This document shows positions 21,771-63,834 of a DNA stretch of 64,000 bases, piece by piece. How positions within the stretch are numbered: the first letter of the stretch is position 1; each line of letters begins with the position of its first letter. The notes beneath the pieces are model-generated. The model worked only from the letters and a program-made list of their open reading frames with translations, was not told where the DNA came from and did not search any database. Location: positions 52,163 to 116,162 of the forward strand of contig JBHLPF010000002.1 in NCBI GenBank assembly GCA_048939765.1, given 5' to 3'. Source of the DNA: Promethearchaeota archaeon. Its GTDB lineage: Archaea; Asgardarchaeota; Thorarchaeia; Thorarchaeales; Thorarchaeaceae. The position numbers and the translations under genes are program-made.

Positions 21771-22838
21771 ATGCTATTTGGCTGGGTGAAAGGAGGAATA
21801 TGCATACACGCAGTAATTCTGGCTGCTGGCCGTGGTTCGCGAATGGGTGTCCTAAGTGACTCAATACCTAAGGGACTCATCCCTTTGGCAGGCAAGGCAA
21901 TTCTAACACGGCTACTTGATGTTTTGGTTGAGTCTGGAGTACATTCTATACATGTGGGGATTGGTTGGAAACATGACCTCTTCACGAAGCACTTGCATGA
22001 CGTCGCTAATTCCTACTCCACGCACATAGAGGCGGTTCAGGTTTCATCAATCGAGAGGGGCCCTCTTCATACTCTATCTACAGTCCTCGATGATTATGAT
22101 GATGAACCATTCCTGATATGCCCAGTCGATTATGTTGTTTCGCCATCCATAGTCGAACAACTCATAAAGGCACATGAGAGTGGTGGGAACTCTCGCATGC
22201 TGACAATCAGTGTAACATCGGAGTCGTCCAATGAATCCCCGACGTATATTCGTGATGGTGGCTTGGTTGCTGGCATAGGAACGCCCCTGATGGAGTTCAA
22301 TTCGGTTCATCACAGTGCTATGCTTGTGGCGGCCAATCCGGCCTCAATCAGTCATTTTCGAGCTGCTCATGCATCAGGCGAGAAGACCGTGGTAGCAGCC
22401 ATAAATCAAATGATATCTCAACGAATGAATGTTTATGCAGCTAAAGTGGCTGGGAAGTGGGCAGATATCGACTCGCTCCCAGACCTTCTTCGTGCAATGG
22501 AGCTGATTCTGTCTGAACAGGTCGAGCCAATCGAGGGCTGTATCATTGTCCCACCTGGTGATACCATTGAGATAGGCGATTCTTTCGAAATCTCATCGGG
22601 AACACTCATTGCATCCGGTGTGACCATAACTGGGCCAGCATTCATAGGTCCTGCATGCAGCCTTGGAGAGAGATGTAGGATTGGTCCGAGCGTGAGCATG
22701 GAGCATGATACAAGACTTCCCAAAGAGGTCACTATCGAAAACTGCCTATTGTTCAATTCAGCCCGAGTCAAGGCGAGAACTCAGGTCAAGGATGCTATTG
22801 TGTTTGGCAGCAAAATCATTACCAAGGAGAGTGTATGA
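21771..22838 (+). CDS. Sugar-phosphate nucleotidyltransferase with C-terminal left-handed beta-helix
   Basis: AVILAAGRGSRMG...IPKGL, WADID, hexapeptide repeats ITGPAFIGPACSLG. Confidence 0.88.
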   Translation: MLFGWVKGGICIHAVILAAGRGSRMGVLSDSIPKGLIPLAGKAILTRLLDVLVESGVHSIHVGIGWKHDLFTKHLHDVANSYSTHIEAVQVSSIERGPLHTLSTVLDDYDDEPFLICPVDYVVSPSIVEQLIKAHESGGNSRMLTISVTSESSNESPTYIRDGGLVAGIGTPLMEFNSVHHSAMLVAANPASISHFRAAHASGEKTVVAAINQMISQRMNVYAAKVAGKWADIDSLPDLLRAMELILSEQVEPIEGCIIVPPGDTIEIGDSFEISSGTLIASGVTITGPAFIGPACSLGERCRIGPSVSMEHDTRLPKEVTIENCLLFNSARVKARTQVKDAIVFGSKIITKESV

Positions 22839-23466
22839 TATCTCACCAAGCAAATTCAGAGTTAGAGGCATTTTCAGAAGTGCTGTCACTGCGGTCGCAA
22901 AACCGCTTGTGAAGCGTAATGTGAAACCTGACTCGATCACCTACCTCACAGTCCTGATGGCTCTTCTCGCTTTCCTTGTATTGACCATTATGAATTCCCA
23001 GCCTATCTATGGGTTGCTAGTGTTTTTCGTAGGATTTCTGGACGGTGTTGATGGAGTAGTAGCAAGAGAGGGGAATCTGACTTCAAAAGCAGGAGCACTT
23101 ACTGACTCATTCATGGATAAAGTATCTGAAGCAATCCTACTTTTTGCCATCGCTGTGGCTTTTGAATCATCATCATTCGCTGGAATTTCAATTCCACTCT
23201 GGGTGCTTGTTTGCATAACCGGATGGCTCCTGACCAGCTATAGCAGGTCACGCGCAGCAAGTCTGGGAGTGACGGACCTTGATGTGGGATTAGGCGCGAG
23301 GTCAGAGCGTCTACTCACACTGGTCATTTTTGCCATGCTTAGCTTTGTCATATGGGGTCTTATAGTCGTGACAATCATGGGTCTCTTAACTGCAGCCTAC
23401 CGATTCTATCACTATAAGCGAGATCTTCTTACTACGAGTGATGAGCCTCAGGGCCATCACATTTAA
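22831..23466 (+). CDS. CDP-alcohol phosphatidyltransferase
   Basis: DGVDGVVAR-x7-GALTDSFMD signature, SYSRSRA, RSER; TM helices. Confidence 0.92.
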   Translation: MYDISPSKFRVRGIFRSAVTAVAKPLVKRNVKPDSITYLTVLMALLAFLVLTIMNSQPIYGLLVFFVGFLDGVDGVVAREGNLTSKAGALTDSFMDKVSEAILLFAIAVAFESSSFAGISIPLWVLVCITGWLLTSYSRSRAASLGVTDLDVGLGARSERLLTLVIFAMLSFVIWGLIVVTIMGLLTAAYRFYHYKRDLLTTSDEPQGHHI

Positions 23467-23935: not shown

Positions 23936-24946
23936 TCACTCATCTTGAATCTTGATGAGGAAGATCTTGTTCCCTATTGCCTGTACAATTTCATTTCTTG
24001 AATCCCCAGTAACATCACCAAAAGCTACTTGCGACTCAGCAGATTTTGAGGCGGTCTTTAGAGCAGCCTCCTCAACAAGCTCAATCCCATTGAAACCTAG
24101 CAAGAGAATTGTGGAGTCCAGCAAGCTCAGGAGAATCTGTCCCGCAGCGGTGTCTTTAAGTATTCTACCCATTCTCACTGCTGTCACCGGAGCCGGGGCT
24201 TTAATTTCAAGAACTTTTTCCAGAGTCTGTTGTTCCACTCTTAGGAGTGTGATTGTACGCTTGTCTGACACACAGACAATCTCGTCATATCTTCCGCCTG
24301 CAATATTACCAGTGGCAATATGATAGACCTCCTTTCCCACCTTCATCCTCCATACTTCATGAAGCCTATCATCCGCATATTGATACACGAAGATGTTGCC
24401 AGTCTCATCCCCGAAAACAAATCTGCTGTAGGGAACATTCTCTATTGATAGTCTTCGCATAGAAAGAACAGGATTATCGACTACCTTGTGGGCCAGCTTG
24501 TCCAGAACCACGTCAAACCATCCGTAGCATCTAAGGGCTTGGTCAGTTGTAGATACTATGACTTCTGCGCTCTTGTCACTAAGCACATTTGCTACTACCA
24601 GCGAGGTAGGAATGGCTCCTACAGGGATGGAGCTCTTCACTTGGAGCTTGTTGTCCATGAACACAAGCAGCCGGAGCTGGTTGTCAAGCCCTGCTACAAC
24701 AAAGTCAGGGGTTCCATTTCCCAGAACATCTCCAACATCCAATGCAGCTACTGGTGGGAGGTCGCTTGTGTTTGCTATCTCCTCAAGCCTTGGCCTCTTA
24801 CCTTTTGTCAACTCAAAGACCCGCAGATCCCCGTTCATAGTGGATACCACAACATTCGCTCTTCCACTGCCCGTGAGATCTACAACTTCGAGTGATGTGA
24901 CTCCTTCTTTGAAGGAGTGCTCGGTTAGTAAGCTAAGCTTGGTCAT
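23936..24946 (-). CDS. FG-GAP/VCBS-like repeat beta-propeller protein, no signal peptide
   Basis: Repeats DLTGSGRANVVV, GDVLGNGTPDFVV, ANVLSDKSAEVIV, GNIAGGRYDEIV, GDVTGDSRNEIV; GAGG RBS before ATG 24946. Confidence 0.8.
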   Translation of the reverse strand: MTKLSLLTEHSFKEGVTSLEVVDLTGSGRANVVVSTMNGDLRVFELTKGKRPRLEEIANTSDLPPVAALDVGDVLGNGTPDFVVAGLDNQLRLLVFMDNKLQVKSSIPVGAIPTSLVVANVLSDKSAEVIVSTTDQALRCYGWFDVVLDKLAHKVVDNPVLSMRRLSIENVPYSRFVFGDETGNIFVYQYADDRLHEVWRMKVGKEVYHIATGNIAGGRYDEIVCVSDKRTITLLRVEQQTLEKVLEIKAPAPVTAVRMGRILKDTAAGQILLSLLDSTILLLGFNGIELVEEAALKTASKSAESQVAFGDVTGDSRNEIVQAIGNKIFLIKIQDE

Positions 24947-25100
24947 CTGGCACTGACCTCGTGAGAAGAGGCGCTGTGAAGCAAAAACTCCGTTTCCCTG
25001 ATTTAAGAGTTGCTCCAACAAGCTTCGAATCTTTTCAGCCGGATCGCTCAATCCAACTGATGCGTTTAAGATGACCTTTGCGGGATATGAAGATGAATAT

Positions 25101-25652
25101 ATGATGGCTGAGAAAACGCGAAAACCACTCCTTACTGAGGAATACTGGACTTCTACAGAATATGAAGTCCAATCTGAGATCCAATCGTTCATAGATGAAT
25201 TTGGTGCTTTTACACCCGAGTGGTTTGTAGACATCAAGTTTCATCTGCTGCGTGAATCAGGACTGACAAAGGAGAGTAGAAATGAATTATGCAGACTCTC
25301 AATTCACGCAAGTCTTTGTCCTAAGTGCGATTTTCTCTATGTTGCCAAAAGGTGTCTTCTTTGGAGCAGACTGTTTCGGATAAACCCAAGGATTATCGAA
25401 CGTGCACCACCTTGCATTCAGGAAGCATTCAAGAACAACCGGATAAAGATAGTCGCAGATTTTCTAGTCGTTGCTAACCTCATCGACCCTCCTTTCTATA
25501 AGGTGCGATCAGCCCCGTGGTGCAAGACCCTGCGAGGGTGGGGTTATTGCACTCCTGATGAGTATTGTGAGGCAATGGCGCGCGAGAATACACTGGAGTA
25601 TAGTGCCGCGCGTGAGAGGGTTAAGAGATCCAGGGACTTCTCCCCCGAGTGA
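25101..25652 (+). CDS. Cys-rich protein resembling the Fe-S C-terminal domain of primase large subunit
   Basis: PPCIQ...PWCKTLRGWGYCTPDEYC...NTLEY parallels the PriL PPC...PxCxxxxxxGxC..D..C...PLxY pattern. Confidence 0.6.
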   Translation: MMAEKTRKPLLTEEYWTSTEYEVQSEIQSFIDEFGAFTPEWFVDIKFHLLRESGLTKESRNELCRLSIHASLCPKCDFLYVAKRCLLWSRLFRINPRIIERAPPCIQEAFKNNRIKIVADFLVVANLIDPPFYKVRSAPWCKTLRGWGYCTPDEYCEAMARENTLEYSAARERVKRSRDFSPE

Positions 25653-25761: not shown

Positions 25762-27249
25762 ATGGCTGAATTGATTCGACTGACAGGTTTTCGTGAGCAC
25801 ACCATTTTGGAAGCCAAGTCCAAGAAAGGTGCTGCTTGGGATGAAATCCAAGGTAAGATAGAACGACGTAAACGGCTTTGGTCTGTAGAAGAAAAACACA
25901 CTCGGCAGAAAGCAATCCAGGATCCGGTGCATGGTGCTATCCTTTTTGCACCCTGGGAGTTGGATATCTTGTCAAGCATTGAGATGCTACGGTTGCGTTT
26001 CGTGAAGCAACTCGGTCCGGCTCATCTGGTGTATCCCGGGGCAACGCATACTCGTTTCCTTCACTGCATTGGAACTAATTTCTTAGCGCAGAAATGCATA
26101 CGAGTCGTCAACTATTGCGATGACTTGGATGACGCATGTTTTCACCCACTTTCCGACCTATTGGATGACTACCAGCAGAGAGTATTCCGTGCGGCGGCGC
26201 TTCTTCATGATGTTGGCCATCCTCCAACATCACACACTATTGAGTATGCATTGGAGAGTTGGGCTGGAATTGATCATTTGGATTTGGGTGAGTATCTTAT
26301 CAAGCATAGTAGTCTCTCAGATATATTGAAGGATCATGGTATCGAACCAAGAATTGTTGTCGATGTATTCAGAAGAAAAGCAAAAGATCCTGTTTGGATG
26401 CTGCTGTCAGATTTTCTTGACCATCCTTTGGATATTGACAAGACAGACTATCTGATTCGAGATGCTCATTTCAGTGGAGTCCAGCTTGGCATATTTCCCG
26501 CTGAGCGTGTTATGTTGACCAACCGAGTTGTCAGAAATCGAGATGGCAACTATGAAAGAGCGTTCATGCTAAAAGCCCTCCATTCTCTGGAGTCGCTAAT
26601 TATGAGTAGGAATTGGATGTTCAGCGACCTCTATCTTCATCATGCTGTGAAGCTGGCAGAAGCAATAACATCTAAGGCCACCTACTTCCGGCTTCAAGAG
26701 GAAGACCTCTCTAGAACTGAATGCTTTGGACTCTTCACGCGAATGACTGATGCTGACCTCTATCTGTGGTTCAAGAATTCTGGGATTGAATTTGTGAGGG
26801 ACTATGCACGGAGAATCAGACACAGGAGGATGTTCAAAGTGGTCCTAGCAAGGTCCCTCTCATCATTTGAAGAAGCTTCGAGAGATGCATTACTTGCAAC
26901 TCTGACAGATATTGAGAAACTAATAGATATTGAATCGGAGGTTGCTGGAGATATCGGAAAAGTCATTGTTGATGTTGTGAATCCTAAGCTGGGCGAAGAT
27001 ATCCTCGGCAAGATTCCTCTTTTGGTAGGAGGAGAAGGTAGCAGCCTTGATACAGTGACTCTTGACTCCATCGAAGAGGGCCAACCCCTAATGCAGATCC
27101 TCAATAAACAGAAGCATACAGCGCCGGCAGTTCGTGTCTACTCCGACCCCCAAGACGCAGCCGGTATTCGTAAGAGATTCTTTCAGATGTTCTCTGCAAT
27201 TCCAGGTGCAAAGGATTTGCGCAATGAATATGACATGACAGAAGCCTAG
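25762..27249 (+). CDS. HD-domain phosphohydrolase, SAMHD1/dNTPase-like
   Basis: IQDPVHG, RLRFVKQLG, YPGATHTRF.H, LLHDVGHPP.SH, DIDKTDYLIRD, LYLHH. Confidence 0.9.
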   Translation: MAELIRLTGFREHTILEAKSKKGAAWDEIQGKIERRKRLWSVEEKHTRQKAIQDPVHGAILFAPWELDILSSIEMLRLRFVKQLGPAHLVYPGATHTRFLHCIGTNFLAQKCIRVVNYCDDLDDACFHPLSDLLDDYQQRVFRAAALLHDVGHPPTSHTIEYALESWAGIDHLDLGEYLIKHSSLSDILKDHGIEPRIVVDVFRRKAKDPVWMLLSDFLDHPLDIDKTDYLIRDAHFSGVQLGIFPAERVMLTNRVVRNRDGNYERAFMLKALHSLESLIMSRNWMFSDLYLHHAVKLAEAITSKATYFRLQEEDLSRTECFGLFTRMTDADLYLWFKNSGIEFVRDYARRIRHRRMFKVVLARSLSSFEEASRDALLATLTDIEKLIDIESEVAGDIGKVIVDVVNPKLGEDILGKIPLLVGGEGSSLDTVTLDSIEEGQPLMQILNKQKHTAPAVRVYSDPQDAAGIRKRFFQMFSAIPGAKDLRNEYDMTEA

Positions 27250-27262
27250 AGCAATTTGCCTA

Positions 27263-27946
27263 TCATCCCATGATAGCAGGTACCAACGCTTTGACCATTT
27301 TGAACCCATGTTCAATGTAGACAATGCCATAGATTGCTTCCACAAGGGTTCCCTTATCGTGGTCCATCTCAGTCTTACTAGGACTATCTGGGTCAAAATG
27401 GATACGTTGTTCATAGAGGCCCCATGAGTCACAGACTTTCGCCAGATGCTCATTGCTCACAACGTCAGCCCGCCGCTGAGTCAATGTACCTACATCTACA
27501 GCTCTAGGAGTCCAAATATGATGCAACACCGCCATTGAAATTGCCGCATCACCCACAAGTGCTAATGATTGAGCCATCTCACTAAGGGACAGAAGTACCG
27601 CGTAGTCTTCATTCTCAAGTGGACACCTTTTGTCATTGACAAGATGAACCTCCATTTCACTGAACAGGTTCTTGGTACTTGGTTGGAACATAGCAACCTG
27701 CAGAAGTTCCGGCTCTACTATTGAAACGCCTAATGCCTTCTCAATTCTAGGTCTAAGCCTAGTCCGAATCATGTGCAGGGATTCAATGATTTGGGAGAGC
27801 TGTCGACCCCATTTCCTGGTCTTACGTAGCATTCGTGTGCTGTTGGAAGGTATTGTCGTTTCGACATCTTTGACAGTCTTTGCTATTACCTTTAGGGTCC
27901 TTTCAAGCCCGATCGGCTCCCATGAAAGATCACGGCCGTCTGTCAT
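27263..27946 (-). CDS. RNase III-domain protein (Mini-III-like, no dsRBD)
   Basis: LALVGDAAI, GTLTQRRADVVSNEHLA, GTLVEAIYGIVY; the ORF ends right after the catalytic domain. Confidence 0.8.
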   Translation of the reverse strand: MTDGRDLSWEPIGLERTLKVIAKTVKDVETTIPSNSTRMLRKTRKWGRQLSQIIESLHMIRTRLRPRIEKALGVSIVEPELLQVAMFQPSTKNLFSEMEVHLVNDKRCPLENEDYAVLLSLSEMAQSLALVGDAAISMAVLHHIWTPRAVDVGTLTQRRADVVSNEHLAKVCDSWGLYEQRIHFDPDSPSKTEMDHDKGTLVEAIYGIVYIEHGFKMVKALVPAIMG

Positions 27947-27953
27947 TAATGCT

Positions 27954-28766
27954 TCAACCCCTTGGCAACACTCTGGTTATGATATTGTCTCCATCCTTGT
28001 GCCTCACAAATATAGCACTCAGTGAGTAATGCATAGCCAATAGTGAGAGTGCAAGCACAATCAGAGGAGGTCCTGTTGAGAGATCAATAACAAGGTCATA
28101 TTGTGTGATGTTGTCTGTTATTATGTTCTCAATCTCCCGCTGTGTGAGCATGACATCACCTGGAATATTCGTGTCATAGTTGCCTGCTGAGTCGACAGGC
28201 AAATCATGCCACTGTATCTCCCATTTTGGTTCAGCCTTCTCAGGCAGGTATCGTGCCAGGTCTCTTGATGAGCCTCTAGCAAAAGTCCTGTCTTCAACAA
28301 TGACATGAAGAACTCTGACATCGAAATCTTTCTGGTCATTTAGCCATGTGATGAACGGTCTCTGATCTTCTGGACGTGACATCGAGGTTATGAGAGCAAC
28401 CGGTCGTGTTATTCCTAGTACTCTTCTCACTGGTTGGATAGCCCATGGCACTAAACCAAAGAGTCGAATTCGTGAACTCTTCCTGCTAGTGATTATCTGG
28501 AGGTTCTCAAGATGTTTCGTATTATGATACAGATGTGGATCGGTGACATTAATCGCTTGTATCTGCTTCTTGGTGAGCTTGCGCTTCTCATCTCTTGCCC
28601 TATCCATCTCTTGAGTCTGCTTGAAGCGTTTGATTGCCTCTCGCAGTTCTATCCCTGTCTTTGGGCCCCCTTCCAGAAGGTCCAGGATTATTCTCCTGGC
28701 GTCTATCTGAATCTCCCGACTGATGACCGTGTCTGCTGTTTCCCAGAACATCGTTTCGCGCCACAT
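27954..28766 (-). CDS. Transcriptional regulator, N-terminal winged HTH plus C-terminal CARF-like Rossmann domain
   Basis: RRIILDLLEGGPKTGIEL...LYHNTKHLENLQII (wHTH); VALITSMS, VLHVIV, LVIDLSTGPPLIVLALSLLA, AIFV (CARF strand/helix order). Confidence 0.7.
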   Translation of the reverse strand: MWRETMFWETADTVISREIQIDARRIILDLLEGGPKTGIELREAIKRFKQTQEMDRARDEKRKLTKKQIQAINVTDPHLYHNTKHLENLQIITSRKSSRIRLFGLVPWAIQPVRRVLGITRPVALITSMSRPEDQRPFITWLNDQKDFDVRVLHVIVEDRTFARGSSRDLARYLPEKAEPKWEIQWHDLPVDSAGNYDTNIPGDVMLTQREIENIITDNITQYDLVIDLSTGPPLIVLALSLLAMHYSLSAIFVRHKDGDNIITRVLPRG

Positions 28767-28986
28767 TAACTCAAAAACATATATCATATATATATTCCGT
28801 CTATGTAATGGTGTTTTATACACTGATAATTAATACAAAACTATGCTTAATGATGTATATATGGCCATTTGAGAGGCATTTTAAAGCTAGTAAAAGCGTC
28901 AGACATATAAGACCTATGTATATCTCGTATCAATCGAATATACCTTAGACTTCTATTTGAATTAAAGAGACCAAGACAGAATAGCC

Positions 28987-28994
28987 TTAAATAT
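28987..28994 (+). promoter_or_regulatory. Putative TATA box of the actin promoter
   Basis: TTAAATAT preceded by purine-rich GACAGAATAG, about 100 nt upstream of the actin ATG. Confidence 0.5.
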
Positions 28995-29095
28995 GGTCGG
29001 AAGACAACTGTACATCAGCCTAGAGTTCCATGAACTCTGAGTTAGAATCTAGGTTCTGAGATCTACTCATTAACCGAAAAAGAGGACCGAAAAAA

Positions 29096-30235
29096 ATGGC
29101 TGAAGACGAGTTTCTTGGCGCGAAGCCCATTGTCATTGACAACGGCACTGGCCTTAGCAAGAACGGATACGCCGGCGAAGATCAGCCACGGAGTGTTTGG
29201 CCCACACTGATTGGATATCCAAGATATGAATCAATCATGACCGATGTTGACCACTATACCAGAGACTACTACATCGGTGAGGAAGCCATCAACCTGCGTG
29301 GTGTTCTGCGACTGGTCTATCCTATCACACATGGTGTGATTGATGACTGGGACGCTATTGAGAAGATATGGAGCTACACGTTCTATAATGACCTCAAGGT
29401 AGACCCGAGTGAGAACCCAGTCCTACTGACTGAAGCACCATTCAACCCACGTGAGAACCGTGAGAGAATGGCGTCAGTGATGTTCGACAACTTTGGTGTT
29501 CCAGCAGTGTACGTTGCCACACAGGCAGTGCTTTCGCTATACGCGTCCGGAAGAACGACGGGGTTAGTTATTGACTCTGGAGATGGTGTGACGCACATTG
29601 TCCCAATCTACGAGGGCTTTGCTATCACACACGCCATCAAGAGGATCGACCTCGCAGGCCGTGACATCACCGAGTATCTGCGTAGACTGCTTAGACAGAG
29701 GGGTTACTCCTTTGTAAGCGGTGCAGAGAAAGAGATTGTCAGAGATGTCAAGGAGAAGCTATGTTATGTAGCCCTTGATCCTGAGAGAGAACGAACCGTT
29801 GCCGACAAGGCAGGTGTTGACAAACCATACATGCTACCGGATGGTGAGGTAATCACTGTAGGTGCAGAAAGGTTCCAGGCACCAGAGTTGTTCTTCAACC
29901 CAAGCGCGATCGGTCTTGACACCCAGCCTCTAGACGACCACATTGTTGAGTCAATCAAGGCATGTGACGTCGACCTGCGACGTGACCTGTATGCCAATGT
30001 TGTGTTGTCCGGCGGTTCGACCATGTTTCCAGGACTCAAGGAGAGACTCCACAAGGAGATCACCGAGCTAGTCCCAGAGAACATCGAGGTCAGAATCATT
30101 GCTCCACCCGAGAGACAGTACTCTGTCTGGATTGGTGGAAGCATCCTCGCCTCGCTGAAGACCTTCCAGAAGATGTGGGTTTCCAGAAAGGAGTTCGAGG
30201 AAGCAGGACCTGAAGTCATTCACAGGTGTATCTAG
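29096..30235 (+). CDS. Actin (Asgard actin)
   Basis: [89 protein letters not shown]-terminal HRCI; 379 aa. Confidence 0.98.
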
Positions 30236-30245
30236 ACCAACAGTC

Positions 30246-30276
30246 TCTGAAGGTAGGGCTGCAACGCCCTCCTTCA
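30246..30276 (+). terminator. Stem-loop 3' of actin
   Basis: TGAAGG(T)AGGGC-tgcaac-GCCCT-CCTTCA followed by pyrimidine-rich CTTCTATTTCTCT. Confidence 0.55.
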
Positions 30277-30379
30277 AACTTCTATTTCTCTGGACTCCAT
30301 TTTATCGCAAATGAGCTTATTATGCAACCCGCCTTCTTTGACATGCGTCAATGACCCACTGAGGCTGAGGTAGAGGTCC

Positions 30380-58419: not shown

Positions 58420-58528
58420 TGGCGCCCGGAATGAGATTCGAACTCATGCCTCCCAAAGGGAGAGCAGCTGCCTGGTGAATCACTGATTCAGCTCCAGGCT
58501 GCCGCCGTCGCCGCTTGGCTATCCGGGC
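58420..58528 (-). tRNA. tRNA-Ser(GGA) with 22-nt intron at 37/38 and encoded CCA
   Basis: Acceptor stem GCCCGGA/TCCGGGC, G73, CCA; anticodon stem GCAGC/GCTGC; long variable arm CTCCC-TTT-GGGAG; TTCGAAT T-loop; intron 58470-58491 forms a BHB. Confidence 0.95.
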
Positions 58529-63484: not shown

Positions 63485-63834
63485 TGGCTCTGGTCCGAAG
63501 AATAGCCCCGATTCTGTTCCACCCCATCTCGTCGCCAAGTTGGGGTCTTGCGACATCAGACTAAGCTCTCTACCCTTTGCCTCCTGTCGACAATCAACGG
63601 CAAAATCTTGAGATTGCTGCCCGGTGATGGACCGTTTCAACCATTCCAGATCAGTCCTCAACAGCTTGAATTGCTGCATCATCGTCAGATCTGACCTGGG
63701 GGTGTCGTTTCTGTTTCTAGAGCGAGGTTCTCACCTCCCCGTATCAACGGGACCGGCGTCGACTTGCAGTCGGGAACTTCCTCAGCTCTTGTCCGTGGAC
63801 AAGTACCGTCAGTCGCTCTTTCGCTCCAGAGCCA
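63485..63834 (-). ncRNA. rnpB: RNase P RNA
   Basis: On the minus strand: P1 ends TGGCTCTGG/CCAGAGCCA, GAGGAAGTTCCCGAC (CR-I), ACAGAAACGAC, TGAAACGG, AACAGAATCGGGGCTAT (CR-V). Confidence 0.92.

Follow-up and report, generated by a model that had tools for sequence, protein, structure and literature searches.

Csa3, a CRISPR-associated transcription factor of Sulfolobales (PDB 2wte, 6w11, 6wxq), combines an N-terminal CARF domain with a winged helix-turn-helix (wHTH) domain at its C terminus. The RosR and ArsR/SmtB-type regulators (PDB 6qfd, 6o8k, 4k2e) are winged-helix dimers that recognise inverted repeats and sense redox state or metals inside the wHTH dimer itself. Here we analyse a locus in a 64-kb stretch of DNA from a Thorarchaeota genome (the whole stretch is referred to below as the window), in which the gene of a wHTH-CARF regulator lies between a divergently transcribed actin gene and a gene for a protein with an RNase III domain. 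The regulator resembles Csa3 in consisting of a CARF and a wHTH domain, and the two CARF domains superimpose with Z 12 and a root-mean-square deviation (rmsd) of 2.8–3.0 over 130 residues at a sequence identity of about 15%. In the structural model, however, the order of the domains is reversed, with the wHTH first, and the gene adjoins actin rather than cas genes, in a genome without Cas10 and outside any CRISPR-Cas context. Residues 1–114 of the regulator form a winged helix like that of the RosR and ArsR/SmtB-type proteins, but the regulator carries a separate, attached CARF domain in place of a sensor built into the wHTH dimer. On balance, we favour the interpretation that this protein is a ligand-sensing transcription factor of the CARF_m5 clade with control over the divergent actin promoter and, probably, over the operon to which it belongs, together with a co-transcribed, Thorarchaeota-specific RNase. 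The actin cytoskeleton of Asgard archaea is central to models of eukaryote origin, and to our knowledge very little is known about the control of its gene expression. The protein family of the regulator is already catalogued, while in the searchable literature we found no report of an actin-linked CARF regulator, of a link between CARF_m5 and actin, or of the Thorarchaeota RNase III.

The three genes are arranged as the initial annotation of the window had described them. On the minus strand, the regulator gene (27954–28751, 265 aa) is followed by the RNase III-domain gene (27263–27946, 227 aa; Pfam PF00636 and PF14622), and only 7 nt (27947–27953) separate the TGA stop codon of the former from the ATG of the latter, so that the two are probably co-transcribed. 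A run of AGGGG stands immediately 5' of the RNase III ATG. The actin gene, eukaryote-like and of the lokiactin type (29096–30235, plus strand, 379 aa; Pfam Actin, E 1.1e-132), is transcribed in the opposite direction. The open reading frame (ORF) of the regulator can be read as 27954–28823 on the minus strand, starting from a GTG at 28823; in an alignment of 23 homologues the family begins with MFW(E/K)T, which places the true start at M25 of this ORF, that is, at 28751. With this start the intergenic region between regulator and actin measures 344 bp (28752–29095), compared to 329 bp with the start used previously. The description of this region as AT-rich and shared with actin stands (GC content 0.33 compared to about 0.46 in the flanks), and only its proposed length of about 330 bp had to be corrected. 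Scans of the locus for terminators and sigma-70 promoters are uninformative for an archaeon.

Pfam and NCBIfam searches with the regulator gave no match, and its classification comes from structure and from a more specialised profile. An AlphaFold2 model computed from the alignment (pLDDT 90, pTM 0.84) consists of a wHTH domain at about residues 1–114 and a CARF domain at residues 115–265. The C-terminal part has the Rossmann-like CARF fold, as seen from its superposition on Card1/VC1899, Cdn1, Can2, Csm6, Cad1, ring nucleases and Csa3 (Z 12–15, rmsd 2.4–3.0, 121–138 residues), and CARF proteins account for all top matches of a Foldseek search with the model. The N-terminal part superimposes on archaeal RosR and on the ArsR-type proteins SqrR and HlyU (Z 11–12, rmsd 1.7–3.0). 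The PADLOC profile PDLC01987 (CARF_m5--CARF) matches the window regulator with E 4.2e-21, aligning residues 40–258 to profile positions 18–193 of 195; a match along almost the whole profile indicates the same protein family, and orthologues from outside the Thorarchaeota match the profile even more strongly, with E between 1e-40 and 1e-57. The regulator is a wHTH-CARF member of CARF_m5, a catalogued minor CARF clade that, going by its name, presumably derives from the CARF classification of Makarova et al. 2020 (NAR 48:8828). Both domain assignments had been guessed from the sequence in the initial annotation, and both are borne out, the CARF domain by fold and PADLOC profile and the wHTH by the superpositions on RosR, SqrR and HlyU.

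Within CARF_m5, the Thorarchaeota branch is the most divergent one: its wHTH carries an additional basic insert and its CARF motif has lost the K/R. The CARF motif, which follows strand beta4, is reportedly of the form [DN]-x-[ST]-x-x-x-[RK]. In the window regulator the corresponding residues are D223-L-S-T-G-P-P, without a basic residue, and the Thorarchaeota homologues all have D-L-S-x-G-P-P with no K/R, thus departing from the usual motif, while the orthologues from other lineages keep D-V-[TS]-x-G-x-[KR], which is of the canonical D-x-[ST]-x-G-x-[KR] type. By this comparison the family as a whole possesses the motif, its last residue having been lost in the Thorarchaeota branch. The recognition helix of the wHTH is conserved, with the pattern V/I-[ST]-D-x-x-L-Y-x-N.

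A profile search run exhaustively over 1.8 billion representative proteins retrieved only 34, including relatives of 212–260 aa that share the two-domain layout. In a survey of 400 genomes of the phylum, the regulator had strong matches in 78 of the 85 genomes of the Thorarchaeota family, where it is near-universal and present as a single copy, and in 13 other families. According to their source names, the orthologues belong to Baldr-, Hermod- and Freya/Jordarchaeia and to Helarchaeota, with further relatives in Ran- and Asgardarchaeia. In the largest families, among them those that we label f8 (0 of 31 genomes) and f22 (weak paralogues only, in 12 of 135), the regulator is missing or weakly represented. 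Weak CARF_m5-like paralogues of about 215–235 aa, with E between 1e-6 and 1e-20, also occur in Loki-type and other families (loci L083–L094); those of the Loki-type families were considered as hidden orthologues and ruled out, as none of the paralogues is located near actin.

The relationship between regulator and actin was examined in 51 species-level loci of Thorarchaeota and in 26 loci around strong orthologues from other lineages. In the Thorarchaeota, actin lies divergently next to the regulator, with the RNase III gene close downstream of the latter, wherever the flank is present, even though the identity of the regulator drops to 37% across these loci compared to 93–100% for actin. Because it recurs in all 51 loci where the flank exists, the arrangement is far more than chance, which counters the caveat, attached to the first description of the locus, that the genes might be adjacent by accident. 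Outside the Thorarchaeota, actin is the direct divergent neighbour of the regulator in families f2, f3, f4, f5, f6, f14, f16, f28 and f29. In f17 the pair is adjacent but co-directional, which indicates that the adjacency survived an inversion. In total, actin directly adjoins the regulator in 10 of the 13 non-Thorarchaeota families carrying the latter. In four families without the regulator, by comparison, the genes found upstream of actin show no relationship to each other, and no conserved neighbour was found. A neighbourhood not conserved in relatives had been named beforehand as an outcome that would speak against a regulatory connection; instead, the adjacency of regulator and actin extends across the Thorarchaeota and most other regulator-bearing Asgard classes. 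The best explanation is that the pair predates the split of the Thor-, Baldr-, Hermod-, Freya/Jord- and other Asgard lineages. The same does not apply to the RNase III gene, whose position behind the regulator is held in Thorarchaeota only and which therefore drops out of the conserved unit originally proposed. In many Asgard classes, genes for an NTP-transferase and a CDP-alcohol phosphatidyltransferase are also located within a few kb of the regulator; in the window they occupy 21771–23466 on the plus strand.

The shared intergenic region contains several sequence elements of interest. On the actin side, a putative TATA box, CTTAAATA, is located at 28986–28993 (plus strand), 103–110 nt upstream of the ATG; CTTAAAT, at a distance from the actin ATG that is itself conserved, recurs in 36 of the 38 non-redundant intergenic regions of Thorarchaeota. 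A Shine-Dalgarno-like element, GAGGACCGA, at 29082–29090 (plus strand) stands directly 5' of the ATG in 30 of the 38. Between 30 and 80 bp upstream of the actin TATA box there is an imperfect inverted repeat (28905–28956) with 19-nt arms that are 74% complementary; it contains ACATAGGTCTTATATGT and is a candidate operator within the genus. On the regulator side, an AT-repeat, TATA-like element at 28776–28796 (minus strand) lies about 25–45 nt upstream of the regulator ATG. It belongs to a pattern ATATA-N7-TATAT with a GGTC/TGTC core that is present in 13 of 27 non-redundant Thorarchaeota intergenic regions, compared to a maximum of 3 in shuffled sequences, and that is placed about 30 nt 5' of the regulator ATG in many lineages. 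This element is probably the core promoter of the regulator, and possibly also an operator through which the regulator would act on its own gene. Enumeration of palindromes over all lineages returned this AT-rich Thorarchaeota element only.

A repeat search in the intergenic regions of other lineages detected inverted repeats of the form CATCTCTATCA-N10-TGATAGAGATG in Hermod, ATCGATATAGACGAT abutting ATCATCTATATCGAT in Baldr and ATCATCTATAT-N5-ATAGAGATGAT in f28. The long perfect or near-perfect repeats of Hermod, Baldr, f28 and f2 are located at L063 7835–7866, L066 3062–3091, L058 7846–7872 and L079 7031–7070, and three of these four repeats have the half-site TCATCTnTAT in common. When one mismatch or less is allowed, this half-site occurs in 10 of 12 non-Thorarchaeota intergenic regions, where 1.6 would be expected and 200 shuffles gave no more than 5; the count is partly circular, as three of the sequences counted also served to derive the motif. 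The half-sites usually form a plus/minus pair, 20–35 bp 5' of the putative actin TATA box. As far as can be judged from the DNA, the candidate repeats near the TATA box fit the conserved recognition helix of the wHTH.

The conserved TATA box about 105 nt before the ATG implies an actin leader of about 80 nt. RNA-library contigs from wetland and sediment metatranscriptomes, which represent related populations with 88–99% identity, cover positions 29035–30291; one of them begins at 29035, and at least 61 nt of the leader are therefore covered. From this locus the RNA-library runs yielded only the conserved actin of relatives and no contigs on the regulator or RNase III gene, which has no bearing on whether the operon is transcribed. 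Near its 5' end the leader can form a hairpin at 29021–29039 (plus strand; AGAGTTC-CAT-GAACTCT at 29022–29038, with a 3-nt loop; z −2.46 for the minimum-free-energy fold). A stem starting from a conserved AGAG(T/C)T is kept in about 28 of 37 distinct Thorarchaeota leaders, with loops of 3–30 nt, some of which contain an inner hairpin, and its arms show the compensatory variants GGAGCTT/AAGCTCC, GAGCT/AGCTC and CAGAGTC/GACTCTG. RNAalifold found no consensus structure in a MAFFT alignment of 31 actin leaders; the loop lengths differ and the arms are misaligned there, and for this reason the hairpin was judged sequence by sequence. The variable spacing of the arms suggests an RNA structure rather than an operator for a dimer. 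RNase III and Mini-III need roughly two helical turns of substrate. A stem of only 5–9 bp makes the hairpin too short to serve as a classical substrate of RNase III.

The nature of the ligand can be narrowed by the CRISPR context. Neither Cas10 (TIGR02577 and TIGR02578) nor SMODS (PF18144) was matched anywhere in this assembly (88.5% complete), and no tandem repeat array was found in the window. Within the family, 10 of the 86 genomes encode Cas10 (TIGR02577), none of them among the 17 genomes of the genus; about 76 of the 86 thus lack it. The initial statement that the window contains no cas genes, arrays or nucleotide cyclases holds for the array in the window and, for Cas10 and SMODS, over the whole assembly; for the other cas families it is less complete, since these were not scanned in every ORF of the window. 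As Cas10 is missing here and in most relatives while the regulator is near-universal, a cyclic oligoadenylate made by a CRISPR system is an unlikely ligand, and the classical signalling through cA4 or cA6 that had been considered for this protein is improbable.

The RNase III protein has a clear domain match (PF00636, 48 bits compared to a cut-off of 27, residues 126–214). Its AlphaFold2 model (pLDDT 91) shows an N-terminal helical hairpin (helices 14–31 and 37–72) and a single RNase III domain at about 64–226. Pfam reports no dsrm match that would indicate a double-stranded RNA-binding domain (dsRBD), and in the model no further structure follows the last helix of the RNase III domain, which ends at residue 226. 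The active-site positions A129, D133, T200 and E203 are invariant in 118 homologues and are the same in the homologues from outside the Thorarchaeota. In a comparison of the family profile with the PDB, RIIIDa of Drosha was the best match (8e-14), ahead of bacterial RNase III (1.8e-5), Dicers and, with 0.15, Mini-III (4oun); Foldseek with the model likewise returned Drosha (E 2.4e-4) and bacterial RNase III, and a phmmer search of the PDB with the protein gave no Mini-III match. The closest solved structures are thus the RNase III domains of Drosha (PDB 5b16, 6v5b, 9asm), for which the alignment includes the helix before the signature and the insert preceding it, the motifs ERLEFLGD and FEA being aligned. 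Drosha differs in its pair of tandem domains, its dsRBD and its large N-terminal regions, and its RIIIDa keeps the E of ERLEFLGD, whereas the Thorarchaeota protein, with its single domain, has to homodimerise before a catalytic site can form. Mini-III (MrnC/YazC; PDB 4oun, 6tnn) is likewise a single RNase III domain without dsRBD, and we take its signature to be A-x-x-G-D ... T-x-x-E; its similarity to the present protein is nevertheless marginal (profile E 0.15), the latter being a 227-aa protein that carries an insert as well as an N-terminal helical hairpin and belongs to an Asgard family. Of the 57 Thorarchaeota genomes with a completeness of 85% or more, 56 encode a member of this family. 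Its distribution is patchy in four other Asgard families, where the signature is kept and the neighbours are unrelated, and in the loci examined outside the Thorarchaeota the gene never lies next to actin or the regulator. The full-length homologues from Loki-type and other families (L095–L102) have the same N-terminal helices and the A..GD / T..E signature, and their neighbours vary between thiolase/MFS, DUF2400, Schlafen-AlbA2/DUF3800 and VWA genes.

These results lead us to the following picture of the locus. As a dimer, the regulator would recognise inverted repeats in the long AT-rich stretch that separates its gene from actin and, once bound, would tune the actin promoter and probably also its own. 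A small molecule held by the CARF domain, other than a cyclic oligoadenylate made by Cas10, would gate the regulator, in a pocket that in Thorarchaeota has lost its usual basic residue. The Thorarchaeota alone placed the RNase III gene directly behind the regulator, at a distance of 7 nt, where it is probably transcribed along with it. The analysis shows the folds and family membership of the proteins, the synteny, the lack of Cas10 and the conservation of promoter and leader elements, while DNA binding, control by a ligand, an effect on actin and RNase activity are inferred.

Several observations, in addition to the circularity in the half-site count, weigh against this picture. A CARF motif without its basic residue means that the domain of the Thorarchaeota regulators may bind no ligand at all, and TCATCTnTAT is not enriched in Thorarchaeota, where it occurs in 9 of 27 intergenic regions compared to 5.6 expected. 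The RNase III protein keeps only two of the four canonical acids (E40, D44, D107 and E110 in Aquifex numbering), its signature being A..GD / T..E. The two acids retained are those essential in E. coli RNase III, and Mini-III of B. subtilis (MrnC), which we assume to have the same two-acid pattern (A19..D23, T103..E106), is, on the same assumption, active; for these reasons the protein is most likely an active endonuclease for double-stranded RNA (dsRNA). The synteny itself is open to a different interpretation. In f15 and in two Helarchaeota families (f18 and f19) actin does not adjoin the regulator, lying 3.3 kb off in one such locus, and in all three families the regulator stays with the NTP-transferase and CDP-alcohol phosphatidyltransferase genes while actin is elsewhere. 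These genes are found near the regulator in about 8 of the 13 families, converging on it and kept with no promoter in common, and their grouping with the regulator looks like an old syntenic block, so that part of the synteny may be plain descent. Carried to its conclusion, this argument makes the adjacency of actin a frozen ancestral remnant without a regulatory link, the regulator controlling itself (and the RNase III gene in Thorarchaeota) or distant targets, and it would agree with the conservation of the Thorarchaeota block over about eight genes on the RNase III side. We consider such an outcome unlikely, albeit one to be taken seriously, as actin is the most persistent direct neighbour of the regulator (10 of the 13 families) and is still adjacent after the inversion in f17, the far side of actin shows no conservation even within the Thorarchaeota, and conserved inverted repeats lie just 5' of the actin TATA box in several classes.

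Two further explanations give a larger role to the nuclease. The initial annotation envisaged a circuit with two layers, in which the regulator acts on the transcription of actin and the RNase III protein cleaves the actin leader. The genes of the two proteins, 7 nt apart, are always together in Thorarchaeota, and the leader is long, conserved and able to form a hairpin with compensatory changes; a stem of 5–9 bp, however, is far below the two helical turns mentioned above, the RNase III gene is not at this position in any other class that keeps the regulator-actin pair, and its homologues elsewhere in Asgard archaea are situated among unrelated genes. With the hairpin too short and nothing linking the protein to actin mRNA, the proposed action of a Mini-III on a structured actin transcript is left without support, and we regard the circuit of two layers as quite improbable. 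It is also conceivable that the regulator and the RNase form an antiviral, CRISPR-type module, with a CARF sensor of cyclic oligoadenylates and a nuclease effector, which came to lie beside actin by chance. The closest structural relatives of the regulator are indeed all ancillary proteins of type III CRISPR systems, and the profile that matches it comes from a library of defence systems. Defence islands are not fixed in place across classes as the regulator is beside actin, though, and a single-copy core gene of the family, present in 79 of its 86 genomes, is hard to reconcile with a Cas10 that is rare in the family and missing from the genus, or with a genome lacking Cas10 and SMODS and a window lacking an array; we judge a defence module to be very improbable.

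If the regulator does control the divergent actin promoter, the locus would be a clear case of a CARF sensor outside antiviral defence, and would imply a new nucleotide-like second messenger in Asgard archaea. We may speculate further that most Asgard classes outside Loki and Heimdall share an ancient, dedicated transcriptional switch for their eukaryote-like actin gene, gated by a small molecule, in which a CARF factor acts on the conserved TCATCTnTAT inverted repeat beside the actin promoter in response to a nucleotide-like housekeeping signal not made by CRISPR systems. CARF would then have been recruited from defence to the cytoskeleton, or the reverse, and the Thorarchaeota would have added a layer at the level of RNA in the form of a Drosha-like, Mini-III-type RNase. 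This broader scenario is tentative, and we hold it to be possible rather than probable. In any case the locus offers a specific, conserved candidate regulator and defined DNA elements, which lend themselves to bench tests using recombinant protein and synthetic DNA and do not require a culture. The Asgard RNase III family, which has no dsRBD, a two-acid site and Drosha as its closest relative by sequence, bears on the origin of the eukaryotic RNase III enzymes.

Further genes on the RNase III side belong to the block conserved in Thorarchaeota. A gene with HD and HD_assoc_2 domains (SAMHD1/dGTPase-like; 25762–27249, plus strand) and the RNase III gene are convergent, only 13 bp separating their stop codons; the former is in the same position in nearly all Thorarchaeota loci, and overlapping convergent transcripts would form dsRNA. 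Further along the block are a gene for a 193-aa protein with no Pfam match (25071–25652, plus strand) and one for a cytoplasmic FG-GAP, BBS2-BBS7-like beta-propeller (23936–25237, minus strand). In the sister family f2 (L079), the gene directly behind the regulator encodes a related propeller. Elsewhere in the window, a tRNA match of 106 nt at 58423–58528 (minus strand) is long enough to contain an intron, and an archaeal RNase P RNA is located at 63491–63828 (minus strand).

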